From Armatimonadota bacterium (GTDB lineage: Bacteria; Vulcanimicrobiota; JACPDS01; JBDRKI01), in contig JBDRKI010000123.1 in NCBI GenBank assembly GCA_043814095.1, positions 1 to 30,858 on the forward strand: DNA of 30,858 nt. Reading direction: 5' to 3'. The notes under the pieces are model-generated. The model made no database searches, was not told the DNA's origin, and worked only from the letters and a program-made list of their open reading frames with translations. Within the stretch, counting starts at the first letter, position 1. Each line of letters opens with the position of its first letter. Positions 71-13,669 of this stretch are shown here, piece by piece. The position numbers and the translations under genes were made by a program.

Positions 71-1600
71 TTATGTTCTCCCGGGGATTTTTTCGAGATT
101 ATTTATATTCTGTTTTTTTATCTCTTCCAACTGACTGGTTATATCCGCAGGTTTCTTTTTTCTCATGGCGTCGGGAATCGCATGCCATATTTTTATTGCA
201 AGGAAAAAACCTATCAGCGTAAACGGCAGCAGGAACCAGGGCCAGTAATTCCAGTTCATTGTTGTAAGCTTGCCCAGCGCTATAGACTGGAATCCCGTGC
301 CGAGGTATACAAACCCGTCAATTACGCCTACCGCGGTGGCTGCGCCCTTCCTTCCTCCGAAATCCATTGTTGCCGTTCCTGAAAGAAGCCCGTGCACGCC
401 TATTACGCAGAGGGATATAAATACCATTAGGCCGCCGAGTATGTACTGGTTTTTATAAAGCGCGAAAGCCATATACAGTACCGCGGCAAACATTGAAAAA
501 TACATAAACGCGGCAGAGGGACCTCTGCGCGAATGGAATAGTTTATCAGACACTATTCCCGCTATAAATCCTCCCGATATGCCGGCAAGGCATAAGAGCA
601 TTCCCCAGTGGTCTTTAAACCATAATGCGGCCGTTCCAATCACGGCTTTGTTTTCTGCGGCAAATATGAAATACCAGTGCATAATACCGTTTCTGATAAC
701 ACCGGAGCAGAATTCTATGGCGCATATTGTTAAAATTATGGGATTTGTTAAAATCTTTTTAAAAATCTGCAAGGTGGAGAATTTCTGATCCATCTCGCCC
801 GAAGAGGCGTCGAGAGTGTCAAAATCTTTTAATCCGGCTTCGGACGGAGTATCTTTAATGAGCAGGAGGTTTATGATTATAAAGGCTGCGAGCAGTAATG
901 CCGGTATGTAAAATACATACCAGATCTGGTTTACGGGCCCCGCAGCCGCTCCGGTTAAGCCGCGCAGGAAGTTCTGTATAGGATCAAGATATGTGCCCGG
1001 TTTAAGGTTAACGCTTACCGCTTTTACGATCGCTCCGCCCCAGTCAAAGGCAAAATATATGCCGAGGGATATCAGAGTGCCGAATATACCGCTGAATATC
1101 CCTCTTTCGCGAACGTGGAACCACGGCGCGTTAACTTTTACGATTGATACCGCCCCGTAGCTCTGGAAATACATATTTACGCCGTATAATATGCAGAAAA
1201 GTTGTGTTAAATTAAGGCGCAGTCCCGAGTAAAGTATCTTATATATAACAAATCCCATCGCAATATTCGCAACAGTTGCCCCTGTCATGCCTATTATCAT
1301 TCCTTTTTTTCCGCCTATCCTGTCAACAAGCGGCCCGTTAATTAAAAATGAAAATCCGTATACAAGCGCGCCTACTCCGAAAATTAAGCCGAAATCTTCT
1401 TTTGTCATTAAATTGCCCAGGGCTGTCTTTGATACGGTGAGGTTATAGCGCGCCATATAAAGGAAGGCGTAGGAAAGCCCCAAGGGAAACCAGTTTAAAA
1501 ATCGCCTCCATATAAACTTTTTATCGTGCCCTGCGGGGTTATTTTTAAAGTAAATAAGAATAGCGATAGAAAGCAGGATTAGCATAATAATGTTGTCCAT
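71..1600 (-). CDS. MFS transporter, organophosphate:Pi antiporter (GlpT/UhpC-like) family
   Basis: About 12-13 hydrophobic segments. Motifs YAFLYMARYN, GPLVDRIGGK, WFHVRERG, GIVSDKLFHSRR and ATAVGVIDGFVYLG are typical of this family. Confidence 0.85.
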   Translation of the reverse strand: MDNIIMLILLSIAILIYFKNNPAGHDKKFIWRRFLNWFPLGLSYAFLYMARYNLTVSKTALGNLMTKEDFGLIFGVGALVYGFSFLINGPLVDRIGGKKGMIIGMTGATVANIAMGFVIYKILYSGLRLNLTQLFCILYGVNMYFQSYGAVSIVKVNAPWFHVRERGIFSGIFGTLISLGIYFAFDWGGAIVKAVSVNLKPGTYLDPIQNFLRGLTGAAAGPVNQIWYVFYIPALLLAAFIIINLLLIKDTPSEAGLKDFDTLDASSGEMDQKFSTLQIFKKILTNPIILTICAIEFCSGVIRNGIMHWYFIFAAENKAVIGTAALWFKDHWGMLLCLAGISGGFIAGIVSDKLFHSRRGPSAAFMYFSMFAAVLYMAFALYKNQYILGGLMVFISLCVIGVHGLLSGTATMDFGGRKGAATAVGVIDGFVYLGTGFQSIALGKLTTMNWNYWPWFLLPFTLIGFFLAIKIWHAIPDAMRKKKPADITSQLEEIKKQNINNLEKIPGRT

Positions 1601-9749: not shown

Positions 9750-10568
9750 TTATTTTTTCATTCTCTGTCTTAACCTAGCGGTCTGGCTGAATTCTGATTT
9801 TGCCGAAGCTTCTTCAAAATTTTGACCTGTATATTTTACGAAAACATCATCCATGCTCGCGTTAAATCCGGCTGATTTTTTCAGCTTGTCCGGAGTATCC
9901 ATTATCATTATTTTGCCCAGATTAATAATTGCTATCCTGTCGCAGTATTCTTCCGCCTCATTCATGTAATGTGTGTTTATGAAAATTGTGATTTTATGTT
10001 CTTTATGAAGGTGGAGTATTTTTTCCCAGACTTTTTTTCTTGCCAGAGGGTCAAGTCCGATAGTAGGTTCATCTAAAAATAATATTTTAGGGTAATTTAT
10101 TAAACTTTCAGCCATCTCCAGCCTGCGCATCATGCCGCCGGAATAAAATTTTACAAGATCATTTGCCCTGTCGGAGAGTTCCATAAGCTCCAGTGCCGAA
10201 TCTATTCTTATCTTTCTTTCCGAACGGGGCACGCCGTATAATTTAGCGTAAAAAAGAAGGTTCTCGTAAGCGGTCAGGTCTCTCTGTATGGATACTTCCT
10301 GGGGCACATATCCTATTATATTCCTTATTTTGTTGTCATCCCTTGATATCTTTAATCCGTTTATGTAGGCCGTGCCCTTAGTAGGCCTTATTAAAGTTGT
10401 GAGTATTTTCATGAGGGTGGTCTTCCCGGCCCCGTTAGGGCCGAGGAGTCCGAAAATCTCGTTTTTTTCAACGGTAAAATTTACATTTTTTAATGCGGTA
10501 ATCCCGCCTTTATATGTTTTGCTTACATCTCTTATATCTATCATAATATAAAGTAGTTCTATGGACAT
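9750..10568 (-). CDS. ABC-2 exporter ATP-binding protein (DrrA-like)
   Basis: Walker A GPNGAGKT, signature YSGGM, Walker B ILFLDEPT, H-loop THYM. Confidence 0.95.
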   Translation of the reverse strand: MSIELLYIMIDIRDVSKTYKGGITALKNVNFTVEKNEIFGLLGPNGAGKTTLMKILTTLIRPTKGTAYINGLKISRDDNKIRNIIGYVPQEVSIQRDLTAYENLLFYAKLYGVPRSERKIRIDSALELMELSDRANDLVKFYSGGMMRRLEMAESLINYPKILFLDEPTIGLDPLARKKVWEKILHLHKEHKITIFINTHYMNEAEEYCDRIAIINLGKIMIMDTPDKLKKSAGFNASMDDVFVKYTGQNFEEASAKSEFSQTARLRQRMKK

Positions 10569-10590
10569 AATAAAACTCCTACATTATAAA

Positions 10591-10619
10591 TTGACAATAC
10601 GGAATTTTAATCGTATAAT
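10591..10619 (+). promoter_or_regulatory. Consensus sigma70 promoter, originally of the M-box leader and now reading into the IS
   Basis: TTGACA (10591-10596), 17-nt spacer, TATAAT (10614-10619). Expected start near 10625-10626, right at the riboswitch 5' end. Confidence 0.9.
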
Positions 10620-10624
10620 TTTGT

Positions 10625-10637
10625 AGAATCTCGTTAG
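10625..10637 (+). ncRNA. 5' fragment of the M-box (ykoK) riboswitch
   Basis: AATCTC (10627-10632) is complementary to GAGATT (12095-12100). CGTTAG is the first half of the M-box CGUUAGGUGAGGCU motif. Confidence 0.85.
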
Positions 10638-11952
10638 GAAGGTCGGCGGGAATCCTCGGTAATTTAATGCCGAGATGAAAGCCGACAGGAAATTTATGAA
10701 AGCAGGTAGAAACTTGATATATAAGACATAGCAAGGAACTGATATGACATTAAAAGGCCATAAATACCGTATATATCCAAATGCGGCTGCCATACGGATT
10801 TTGGAGCAACATTTTGGCAGTGTCCGCTATGTTTACAATTATTTTCTTGGCCTGCGGATTAAAGCATACAAAGAAGAAGGAAAAACTATAGATGGATTTT
10901 CCTGCAAACGCATGCTTGTCGAATTAAAAAAAGAAAAATCATGGTTAAAAGATATTAATTCTCAGAGTCTTCAGCAATTCGTGCTTGATCTTGAAAAAAG
11001 TTACAGAAGATTTTTTAAAGGACTTGGCGGTTATCCTGTTTTCAAGAAGAAGGCAAACAGACAGTCATTCGCCGTGCCGCAGAATTTTAAAACAATAGAC
11101 GGCAAGCTATATATTCCGAAGTTAAAAAACGGGATAAACATAAAACTGCACAGGGAGCTTGAAGGATGCGCAAAAACCGTAATTATTTCTAAGTCGCCAA
11201 CGGGTAAATATTACGCTTCTTTTTCATGTGAAGTAGAAATTGATAAACTGCCGAAAAACAACAAAGAAATAGGAGTTGACCTAGGATTGAATCACTTTGC
11301 GATACTGTCAAACGGCGAAAAGATAGAACACCCGAAAACATTAAGAAGATCGCAGAAGAAATTAAGCAGACTGCAGAGGAAATTATCAGGGAAACAGAAG
11401 GGTTCAAGCAATAGAAACAAGGCAAGATTAAAAGTAGCCGCACTGCATGAGAAGATAGGCAACCAACGCAAAGATTTTCTTCATAAATTATCTTTCAGAT
11501 TGATACGCGAAAACCAAGCAATCCATCTGGAAGAATTAATAGTGAAGAATATGGTCAAAAACCGTTGTTTATCAAAAGCCATAAGCGACAGCGGGTGGGG
11601 AGAATTTACCCGTCAGCTTGATTACAAGTCCGAATGGTATGGCAGGCAGTTCAATCAAATACCGAGATTTTATCCGTCAAGCAAGACATGTAATGTGTGC
11701 GGTTTTGTATTTAAAGAATTGCAGTTATCGCAGAGGTCGTGGAATTGTACTGACTGCGGATCAATCCACGACAGGGACATAAACGCGGCTAATGTAATAC
11801 TAAGTGTAGGGCAGGACATGCCCGAATTAACGCCTGTGGAGAGATTGGCCCCTACCTCATCGGTATTATCGATGAAACAAGTCAGCTCGGTGAAGCAGGA
11901 AGCTCTCGCATCTAATAAGATGCACGGGATTTTAATCCCGTGAGTATGTCAC
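10638..11952 (+). mobile_element. IS200/IS605-family non-autonomous element (IS1341-like, tnpB only)
   Basis: Left-end hairpins GTCGGC/GCCGAC and CTCGGT/GCCGAG (10642-10686). Right-end hairpin CACGGGATT/AATCCCGTG (11923-11942) followed by ATGTCAC. No TIR or TSD. Removing it restores the riboswitch; the boundary is ambiguous by one G. Confidence 0.9.
10744..11943 (+). CDS. tnpB: RNA-guided endonuclease TnpB
   Basis: N-terminal KYRIYP...FGSVRYVYN, RuvC-I GVDLG, RuvC-II LEEL, zinc finger CNVC/CTDC, RuvC-III DRDINAA. Confidence 0.96.
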   Translation: MTLKGHKYRIYPNAAAIRILEQHFGSVRYVYNYFLGLRIKAYKEEGKTIDGFSCKRMLVELKKEKSWLKDINSQSLQQFVLDLEKSYRRFFKGLGGYPVFKKKANRQSFAVPQNFKTIDGKLYIPKLKNGINIKLHRELEGCAKTVIISKSPTGKYYASFSCEVEIDKLPKNNKEIGVDLGLNHFAILSNGEKIEHPKTLRRSQKKLSRLQRKLSGKQKGSSNRNKARLKVAALHEKIGNQRKDFLHKLSFRLIRENQAIHLEELIVKNMVKNRCLSKAISDSGWGEFTRQLDYKSEWYGRQFNQIPRFYPSSKTCNVCGFVFKELQLSQRSWNCTDCGSIHDRDINAANVILSVGQDMPELTPVERLAPTSSVLSMKQVSSVKQEALASNKMHGILIP

Positions 11953-11970
11953 GTGAGGCTACTCTTAAAA
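11800..11970 (+). ncRNA. Predicted TnpB omegaRNA/reRNA (scaffold to 11952, guide from 11953); outer limits approximate
   Basis: Characterised TnpB reRNAs overlap the tnpB 3' end and right end. Hairpins at 11908-11923 and 11923-11942. GTGA (11890-11893) can pair with terminal TCAC. Confidence 0.7.
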
Positions 11971-12100
11971 ACACAGGCCATTGCCCGGAAATGTCGAGAG
12001 ACGCCAATGGGTAGAAAAGACCAGATCGAATTAAGGTTTGGTATAACATGGCTAGCTGAGAAGCTTACGTTTGAGAAAGCCAAAGCTCAACAAGGAGATT
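11953..12100 (+). ncRNA. M-box (ykoK) Mg2+ riboswitch aptamer, main 3' part
   Basis: GTGAGGCT...TGCCCGGAAATGTCGAGAGACGCCAATGGGT...ATCGAATTAAGG...GCCAAAGCTC matches the conserved M-box blocks in order, upstream of Mg-transport-type genes. Confidence 0.92.
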
Positions 12101-12132
12101 TTGGATAGTTTTGACTATACATAAATCTTATT

Positions 12133-12161
12133 GAGCTTCTTTGCGAGAGGAAGCTTTTTTT
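12133..12161 (+). terminator. M-box expression-platform terminator
   Basis: GAGCTTCTTT-GCGA-GAGGAAGCTT plus T run. TTGAGCTT (12131-12138) can instead pair with aptamer AAGCTCAA (12083-12090) as an antiterminator. Confidence 0.88.
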
Positions 12162-12181
12162 ATTAATATCGGGATTTGGTT

Positions 12182-13450
12182 ATGAATTTTTTAGCAAAAC
12201 TGTTTTACACACACAGAAGAATATTTAAAGCGATTAAACTCTTCCTGATTATATCGGGTCCGGGTATTATTGTTATGGTTGCGGATAATGACGCCGCCGG
12301 CATTACTACATACGCGGTTACCGGAGCTAAATACGGTTATAAGCTTATATGGTTTTTACTTGTTCTTATTCCCATAGCGTATTATATTCAGGAGATGACA
12401 ATGAGGCTTGGTGTTGTCACAAAGAGAGGGCACGCTGAGTCTATTTTTACGGGGTTCGGCCCCTTATGGGGATGGTTCTCCCTTGCCAATCTTGCTTTTG
12501 TAAACTGGTTAACCCTTATAACGGAATTTATCGGCATGGCCGCGGCTTTCAGCATATTCGGGGTGCCTCCTTACGCGACGGTTATAGGGGTATGCCTTCT
12601 TATGGGATTTATGGTTTTAAAAGGAAGATACTGGACATGGGAAAAGATAGCGCTTCTATTCTGTTTTTTAAACCTTATATATATACCTATTGCTTTTATG
12701 ATAAAACCTTCCGTTTCCCAGATTATGCAGGGTTTTGTCCCTAATTTCCCCGGCGGGATTACTCAACCTCTCTTATTCTTTCTTATGGCAAATATTGGCA
12801 CAACAATTACTCCCTGGATGCTTTATTTCCAGCAGTCCGCTGTTGTTGATAAAGGCATGAAGGAAAAAGATATCCCCTGGGGCAAGTTTGATACTCTGGT
12901 GGGCGCAGTGTTTACGGTATCCATCGCGGTATTTATTGTTATAGTTACAGGCACAATCTTAAAGGGAGTGGAGATAGAAAGCGCAGCGCAGGCCGCGAGA
13001 ATGCTTATGGAGCTTCACCCATACCTGGGCACATGCCTTGCCATAGGACTTTTTAACGCGGGACTTTTAGGCGCGATCTGCATAACCCTCGCGAGCTCAT
13101 GGGCGTTCGGGGAAGTCTTCGGCTGGGCGCATTCTTTAAACAATAAAATTAAAGAAGCTCCGTGGTTTTACGCAAATTACTTCATAACCCTTATAACGGC
13201 GGGGCTGGTAATCTTAATACCCAGAGCGCCGCTTATTACTATAGCTCTTTTTGTCCAGGTAGCCTCGGTTATTCTTCTTCCGGCATCATTAGTATTTTTA
13301 ATACTTCTCTTAAACGACGAAAAAACAATGGGCGAATTTAAGAACTCAAGATTCCAGAATTTTATAAGCTTGATTATTATTATAGGCATTATTATTATAT
13401 CGGCATTGTACGCGGTAAGCATAATACTGCCGGATATTTTTAAGGGGTGA
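12182..13450 (+). CDS. NRAMP-related divalent cation transporter, probable Mg2+ (NrmT/NRMT) type
   Basis: TM1 GPGIIVMVADNDAAG (not DPGN), TM6 GTTITPWMLYFQQS (not MPH), QEMTMRLG, MGEFKN; M-box upstream. Start is ATG 12182 or TTG 12176. Confidence 0.88.
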   Translation: MNFLAKLFYTHRRIFKAIKLFLIISGPGIIVMVADNDAAGITTYAVTGAKYGYKLIWFLLVLIPIAYYIQEMTMRLGVVTKRGHAESIFTGFGPLWGWFSLANLAFVNWLTLITEFIGMAAAFSIFGVPPYATVIGVCLLMGFMVLKGRYWTWEKIALLFCFLNLIYIPIAFMIKPSVSQIMQGFVPNFPGGITQPLLFFLMANIGTTITPWMLYFQQSAVVDKGMKEKDIPWGKFDTLVGAVFTVSIAVFIVIVTGTILKGVEIESAAQAARMLMELHPYLGTCLAIGLFNAGLLGAICITLASSWAFGEVFGWAHSLNNKIKEAPWFYANYFITLITAGLVILIPRAPLITIALFVQVASVILLPASLVFLILLLNDEKTMGEFKNSRFQNFISLIIIIGIIIISALYAVSIILPDIFKG

Positions 13451-13456
13451 TAAAAT

Positions 13457-13669
13457 ATGAGAAGAAAGATGCGCATATTTTTCAAGCGCAGGGTAAAAAG
13501 GTTTTTCGCTCATTTATTTGACTGGTTTATAGATATAAACAAGAAATATTCCAAACCCCAGATAGAGATGAGGTTCTCTGTAAAAGCTTCCTTATTTATA
13601 CTTGTATTTTATCTTGTGTTTATGATGTCTCTTTTAATTTATAAATTTGTAATAACTGTAAGGGGTTAA
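13457..13669 (+). CDS. Small basic protein with a single C-terminal TM helix
   Basis: 70 aa filling the gap between operon genes (6 and 4 nt gaps), GGGGTGA SD, hydrophobic segment LFILVFYLVFMMSLLIY. Confidence 0.7.
   Translation: MRRKMRIFFKRRVKRFFAHLFDWFIDINKKYSKPQIEMRFSVKASLFILVFYLVFMMSLLIYKFVITVRG

Follow-up and report, generated by a model that had tools for sequence, protein, structure and literature searches.

A TnpB element inside an M-box magnesium riboswitch of an Armatimonadota bacterium and its possible effect on control of an NrmT-type transporter

The interrupted leader of nrmT

The window analysed here, the whole 30,858-nt contig JBDRKI010000123.1 of an Armatimonadota draft assembly (GCA_043814095.1), carries an M-box magnesium riboswitch in front of nrmT, the gene for an Nramp-related transporter, and inside this riboswitch an ISDra2-like transposable element of 1,315 bp (10638-11952), in which tnpB is present and tnpA is absent. 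The insertion point lies 3′ of the pentamer GTTAG, between positions 15 and 16 of the Rfam M-box model (RF00380), so that 1,315 bp now separate the remaining aptamer from two upstream parts, the host promoter and the 11 nt that form the 5′ strand of P1, the closing stem. Neither the expression platform nor the nrmT operon is touched by the insertion, and tnpB, which lies in sense orientation, is intact. This is the sole M-box in the 2.5-Mb draft genome and the sole above-threshold Rfam match in the window. Below, the sequence as assembled is called native and the same sequence after deletion of 10638-11952 in silico is called excised; the leader and its operon comprise the following features.

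10591-10619 (+): sigma-70-type promoter of the riboswitch leader, now reading into the transposon; TTGACA, 17 nt, TATAAT, 12/12
10627-10637 (+): 5′ strand of P1, the M-box closing stem, cut off from its aptamer; matches intact M-boxes, with one exact occurrence in the window
10638-11952 (+): IS200/IS605-family element, non-autonomous, tnpB only; sole full copy in the genome
11938-12105 (+): RF00380 match of the native sequence; 115.6 bits, model positions 1-169, four non-standard pairs
11953-12105 (+): remaining M-box aptamer, model positions 16-169; 110.5 bits alone, flagged as 5′ truncated
12083-12138 (+): antiterminator; 12083-12090 pairs with 12131-12138, enclosing the hairpin 12095-12101/12123-12129; found in the minimum free energy (MFE) structure of the native leader
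12133-12163 (+): intrinsic terminator; 10-bp stem 12133-12156, then a T run; found in the MFE structure of the excised leader
12176-13450 (+): nrmT, the regulated gene, for an Nramp-related transporter of the NrmT type; Pfam Nramp, 254 bits
13674-14954 (+): soluble MgtE_N + CBS (+ PRC-barrel) protein by Pfam, the usual nrmT partner

The two borders of the element were fixed by different comparisons. The right border, 11952, follows from two solo copies of the right end on contigs C23 and C75 of the same genome, which correspond to the last 64-71 nt of the element (11887-11952) and diverge right after the equivalent of 11952; all three right-end copies thus share the terminal base and then run into unrelated sequence. 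Similarly, the match of a related public metagenome contig to the element ceases at 11953. The left border, 10638, was fixed by homology to intact M-boxes. That is, bases 10630-10637, CTCGTTAG, precede the conserved core in two of the eight intact M-boxes compared, with one base different in the other six, and one of the two exact matches (locus L055) lies upstream of an NrmT orthologue with 73% protein identity. In this orthologous leader, too, a promoter-like box stands directly before P1. Target duplication is absent, in that the flanks merge into one M-box with no base repeated. GTTAG (10633-10637) adjoins the left end and is the presumed target motif (TAM); a search of the genome found no second left end of the element, and the motif is thus known from one copy. 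Because it rests on this single copy, both GTTAG as the motif and cutting of a restored site beside it are read from the behaviour of the family.

A first-pass annotation of this DNA had described a TnpB element lodged within an M-box, and all its coordinates agree with ours. It had also proposed that deleting 10638-11952 rebuilds an aptamer with its proper closing stem, which model positions, profile search and pairing probabilities bear out: P1, formed by 10627-10632 with 12095-12100, has Watson-Crick pairs at six of six positions and reaches a helix probability of 0.73-0.79 in the excised aptamer. The consensus promoter that it had placed just before the M-box is likewise there.

The trivial explanation would be an assembly artefact, a chimeric contig uniting a transposon copy with two unrelated pieces of DNA. 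The genome is indeed a draft of 129 contigs in which copies of other insertion sequences break contigs. Against a chimera, the flanks are complementary halves of one M-box that meet exactly at the transposon borders, and the assembly has a single copy of the element, in the middle of a 30.9-kb contig. Since two halves of one structured RNA meet at the transposon borders, a chimera is strongly disfavoured; we regard it as extremely improbable and hold with high confidence that the insertion is real.

The element, its predicted guide and its relatives

The element has the parts expected of an ISDra2-like transposon, and its predicted guide reaches into the riboswitch.

10642-10686 (+): left-end subterminal hairpin; DNA fold of -10 kcal/mol, z = -1.83, a weak signal equalled by 12 of 200 shuffles
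10744-11943 (+): tnpB, 399 aa, RNA-guided nuclease by its Pfam families; D179, E263 and D345 present
11833-11901 (+): candidate and probable part of the omega/reRNA scaffold; RAGATH-18 (RF03064), 26.2 bits, E = 0.027, below the gathering score of 44.9, at the place expected for such a scaffold
11887-11952 (+): right end common to the two solo copies; includes the hairpin 11923-11942, then 10 nt to the border
11953-11968 (+): predicted 16-nt TnpB guide, equal to M-box model positions 16-31, by analogy with ISDra2

The protein matches the Pfam families OrfB_IS605 (108.5 bits), Cas12f1-like_TNB, a zinc ribbon (79.3 bits), and HTH_OrfB_IS605 (58.2 bits). D179, E263 and D345 align with ISDra2 D191, E278 and a third acidic residue, which we take to be D361, and the RuvC D-E-D triad is thus kept. 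The closest solved structures are those of ISDra2 TnpB (8bf8/8exa/8h1j; E = 4.8e-80), in which D191 and E278 are essential according to the ISDra2 study (PMC8612924). In the same study the last ~16 nt of the ISDra2 reRNA derive from flanking DNA, the rule from which the guide at 11953-11968 is predicted. Only 106 nt separate the left border from tnpB, and no strong + strand promoter other than that of the riboswitch leader was found before the gene. Terminal inverted repeats are absent and subterminal hairpins are present, as for IS200/IS605 elements; the one at the right end (11923-11942) is a perfect 9-bp inverted repeat with z = -3.39.

As for the transposase, no Y1 (HUH) transposase TnpA lies inside the element, and there is no Y1_Tnp match on the contig. 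Elsewhere in the genome there are seven Y1-transposase matches, all on other contigs; only the one on contig C96 is complete, the rest being fragments or situated at contig ends. The C96 TnpA belongs to another, apparently multi-copy element with a TTAC left border, the point at which its two comparable copies start to match, and an unrelated left end (alignment score 18). This second element is an autonomous, TTAC-bordered one of IS605 type (tnpA, then tnpB), seen at the ends of contigs C96, C128, C2 and C22, and its copies, probably several, are a likely reason for breaks in the assembly. The solo right ends on C23 (~1501-1571, minus strand) and C75 (minus strand) have neither tnpB nor a left end within 1.5 kb upstream and represent decayed copies or else very short derivatives.

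Among 185,579 species genomes we found no close TnpB, the best being ≤49% identical, and no close copy of the element was found among 60 relatives of the host. Public runs labelled groundwater metagenome do contain contigs with copies that are 85-99% identical to it in DNA. A search of 400 genomes of the phylum with the right-end 15-mer gave true copies in the element's own genome only: the matches in one family (f10) were rejected as an unrelated conserved locus, and the remaining ones carry one mismatch each, at about the chance rate. The idea that the element might be an IStron was dropped as well, no group I intron being among the five matches listed, with E up to 10, for 10560-11960.

The truncated aptamer and magnesium control

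On one point the picture of a split aptamer needs correction. The native leader scores as full-length in Rfam, without a truncation flag and above the gathering score of 44 bits. The first 15 nt of the match are the right end of the transposon, standing in for the lost strand, and Rfam reports no truncation because these last 15 nt of the element imitate that strand. The imitation is weak: the transposon-derived 15 nt contribute 5.1 bits (115.6 vs 110.5), whereas the authentic 15 nt of the intact orthologous M-box L055 contribute 20.6 bits (142.7 vs 122.1). It is also a property of the transposon and not an adaptation to the locus, since the same right-end terminus is found at two unrelated sites. 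With nhmmer and a profile of the eight intact M-boxes, the excised sequence scores 74.1 bits, the native one 60.8 and the right part alone 59.7, and the alignment starts at profile position 7 in the excised sequence and at position 16 in the native one. A contiguous authentic P1 is absent from the native leader, its 5′ strand lying 1,315 nt upstream. A routine annotation pipeline would list an intact M-box here, with 115.6 bits across the whole model, even though the closing strand comes from the transposon; a broken riboswitch can thus lie concealed behind a high covariance-model score.

Folding with ViennaRNA, which treats secondary structure only, gives different values for the two alleles. 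The P1 duplex is worth -14.2 kcal/mol in the excised sequence and -6.0 in the native one, and for the aptamer transcribed to 12105 the probability of P1 falls from the 0.73-0.79 given above to 0.0. The next two closing helices have probabilities of 0.71-0.81 in the excised aptamer and 0.1 or less in the native one. Terminator and antiterminator are mutually exclusive, both using 12133-12138, and the MFE structure of the leader holds the aptamer plus terminator when excised and the antiterminator when native. In the native allele the surrogate P1, made with the right end, and the authentic long-range P1 both have a probability of 0.0; over the full 1,540-nt native transcript, antiterminator pairs reach 0.27-0.94, the terminator 0.01 and the long-range P1 0. 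Instead of closing the aptamer, the right end enters an 8-bp junction hairpin, in which 11942-11950 pairs with 11957-11964. As a separate observation, this predicted hairpin (11942-11964) would tie up both the predicted guide and the 5′ strand from which the inner helices of the aptamer are built.

The account that we favour, and consider reasonably probable, is that of a selfish ISDra2-like insertion in the sole M-box of the genome that has weakened or abolished magnesium-dependent termination. Transcription from the riboswitch promoter would run through tnpB and the guide-RNA scaffold into the truncated aptamer. There, P1 and the next helices would fail to close, the authentic strand being too distant and its imitation at the right end too weak; with the closing helices unformed, the antiterminator would be favoured and magnesium-dependent termination before nrmT weakened or lost. 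Moreover, the guide 11953-11968 should match the restored M-box next to GTTAG, since precise excision would recreate both, so that TnpB would be expected to cut the excised allele and favour re-acquisition of the element. The element thus appears to be an ordinary selfish insertion, not an evolved switch, in an unusual place. How far control of nrmT is affected is a narrower question. In the native allele the antiterminator comes out ahead in most folding runs, with an outcome that depends on the chosen 5′ end, and we lean slightly towards a magnesium control that is clearly weakened. Derepression of the transporter operon, as the first-pass annotation had proposed, is plausible. Its premise, unpaired P1 and closing helices with a favoured antiterminator, is what the native folds predict; the difference between the ensembles is small, however, and the fold starting at 11800 favours the terminator.

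Several points weigh against this account. The native score of 115.6 bits lies within the range of the eight intact M-boxes (113.1-142.7), and Infernal pairs seven of the eight outer P1 positions by way of the right end, two of them as G-U, so that a working though weaker aptamer is possible. The constrained ensembles are close, terminator minus antiterminator amounting to -0.6 kcal/mol in the excised leader and to +0.1, +1.9, +1.0 and +0.8 kcal/mol in the native one for four 5′ ends; with a native 5′ end at 11800, the terminator reaches 0.53 and the antiterminator 0.43. The folds leave out magnesium-dependent tertiary contacts, co-transcriptional kinetics, TnpB binding and the ribosomes that finish tnpB 10 nt before the junction. 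The insertion could also lower nrmT expression, via polarity or guide RNA processing. Finally, the locus is a single occurrence in one draft genome.

If the riboswitch does still work, either with the right end as a substitute closing strand or with the authentic 5′ strand pairing across a giant loop of 1.3 kb, magnesium control of nrmT would be essentially kept and the insertion near-neutral. Besides the whole-model alignment with its four non-standard pairs and a score in the intact range, this is favoured by the right end, which retains the closing-stem pairs in competition with the antiterminator (GU with AC, plus two of the three pairs in the next helix), and by constrained energies that set the alleles only 0.7-2.5 kcal/mol apart. 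Yet surrogate and long-range P1 have a probability of 0.0 in all folds, the right end earns 5.1 bits where the authentic strand earns 20.6, and its presence at two other, unrelated genome sites marks it as unadapted to this one. Terminating ribosomes would disturb the surrogate strand in addition, because the tnpB stop codon (11941-11943) overlaps it. On balance we think a working riboswitch unlikely. An insertion that mainly lowers nrmT expression, by polarity combined with TnpB binding and guide-RNA trimming that cuts the read-through transcript just inside the aptamer, so that less transporter mRNA is produced or it decays, seems improbable to us. By the ISDra2 rule (~16 nt into the flank; PMC8612924) the reRNA would end at ~11968, inside the aptamer, and loss of nrmT expression might be tolerable because another magnesium route, one CorA, exists. 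On the other side, no terminator-like site was found on the + strand between the promoter and 12133, and translation of tnpB in the same direction should counter Rho-type polarity.

The first-pass annotation had gone further and envisaged a potentially reversible DNA-level switch, with a constitutive transporter in the inserted state, a magnesium-regulated one in the excised state and a TnpA acting in trans to flip between them. Several facts fit: excision of IS200/IS605 elements by TnpA is described as precise, leaving no duplication (PMC8612924), excision restores a good M-box as judged by the profile and folding proxies, and Y1 transposase genes are present in the genome. This part of the proposal is nevertheless not supported. 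No cognate TnpA was found among the seven Y1 matches of the genome, and TnpB keeps its catalytic residues and by the published mechanism should cut the restored site. According to the same study, the TnpB guide RNA carries ~16 nt of the right flank and directs cutting of the donor joint by the target motif, favouring re-instatement of the element; homing of TnpB at the donor joint is likewise linked to re-instatement in the preprint of Meers et al. We therefore judge the reversible switch very improbable. A bet-hedging form of it, with both alleles kept in populations for fluctuating magnesium, rare excision by TnpA and a reversal rate set by TnpB homing, has in our view only a slim chance of being right; were it true, NrmT would be made regardless of magnesium, and TnpB and its guide would be expressed from the riboswitch promoter. 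Public sequencing runs were inspected for the state of the junction. Fourteen runs were listed (shares 0.05-0.10) and four of them examined, with 32 of 221 contig pieces listed; at 85-99% identity, these pieces represent either relatives of the element or short stretches matching the conserved ABC-ATPase gene (10399-10461). None of them spans a junction, and no empty-site allele was seen. Run depth is 0 in the bins 10524-10604 and 12063-12224, so that the junction state is not covered there. Weighing all of this, we retain the selfish insertion with weakened or lost termination as our preferred reading.

Related loci and known systems

The operon downstream of the interrupted leader is of a known kind. 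Shin et al. 2014 (PMC4072509) described magnesium transporters of this Nramp-related type (NrmT) that are under M-box control and have as partner a gene for a homologue of the MgtE cytoplasmic domain. Here, a 70-aa open reading frame (13457-13669, +) lies between nrmT and the MgtE_N/CBS gene; its product is basic at the N-terminus and has a single hydrophobic stretch towards the C-terminus. The genome, at a completeness of 98.97%, has no MgtE membrane domain (PF01769) and one CorA; NrmT and CorA appear to be the magnesium import routes of the organism.

A search of 60 relatives returned nothing beyond weak matches to nrmT and the conserved core of M-boxes other than this one; the genome is alone in its family. 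Eighty metagenome loci with NrmT orthologues, 66-74% identical, include none close enough to represent the same site, and in only one of the 80 did we find an M-box (upstream flank of up to 3.5 kb, shorter at contig ends). The single genome of the same order has no M-box within 1.4 kb upstream of nrmT. Because of this one occurrence in 80 orthologues and the absence from the same-order genome, M-box control of NrmT is patchy across the lineage. In genome G003, from another family of the phylum, M-box and nrmT seemed to be separated by a gap of 1.3 kb, which proved to hold an ordinary 462-aa gene and no transposon. On that contig (C40, 1814-4549) the order is M-box (114.6 bits), 462-aa gene, nrmT, so that the same regulon has a gene order different from the one here.

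The locus offers a clean natural case of a transposon with an RNA-guided nuclease inside a structured regulatory RNA. A strong host promoter is placed to drive tnpB and its guide, whose predicted sequence is that of the riboswitch. The element is thereby a convenient natural substrate for studying TnpB homing and the cost of leader insertions, while the native and precisely excised leaders form a matched pair that bears on how much closing stem an M-box needs.

Among known systems, ISDra2 of Deinococcus radiodurans is the closest to the element. The two share a TnpB of similar length and domain order with conserved catalytic positions, subterminal hairpins and the lack of a target duplication; in ISDra2, as is presumed here, a 5-nt motif borders the left end and the right flank supplies the guide (PMC8612924). 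Unlike ISDra2, the element here lacks tnpA, its presumed motif is GTTAG and not TTGAT, and its scaffold match is sub-threshold. For the host side, the counterpart is Ca_c0685 of Clostridium acetobutylicum, where, according to PMC4072509, an M-box with terminator precedes genes for an Nramp-related transporter and for a homologue of the MgtE cytoplasmic domain; in contrast with that operon, the transposon here parts the promoter and the 5′ strand of the aptamer from the rest. The third comparison is with IStrons, members of the IS200/IS605 family that carry a fused group I intron, by which they are spliced from host RNA (PMC13521648; 10.1101/2023.11.20.567912). As in IStrons, a TnpB element lies in sense orientation inside a host transcript, which would be repaired if the element were taken out of the RNA, but the element here has no group I intron match. 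A full-text search of the literature, with supplementary files outside its scope, found no IS200/IS605 or TnpB element inside a riboswitch. The parts assembled at this locus are ordinary members of known families; it is their combination that is unusual.

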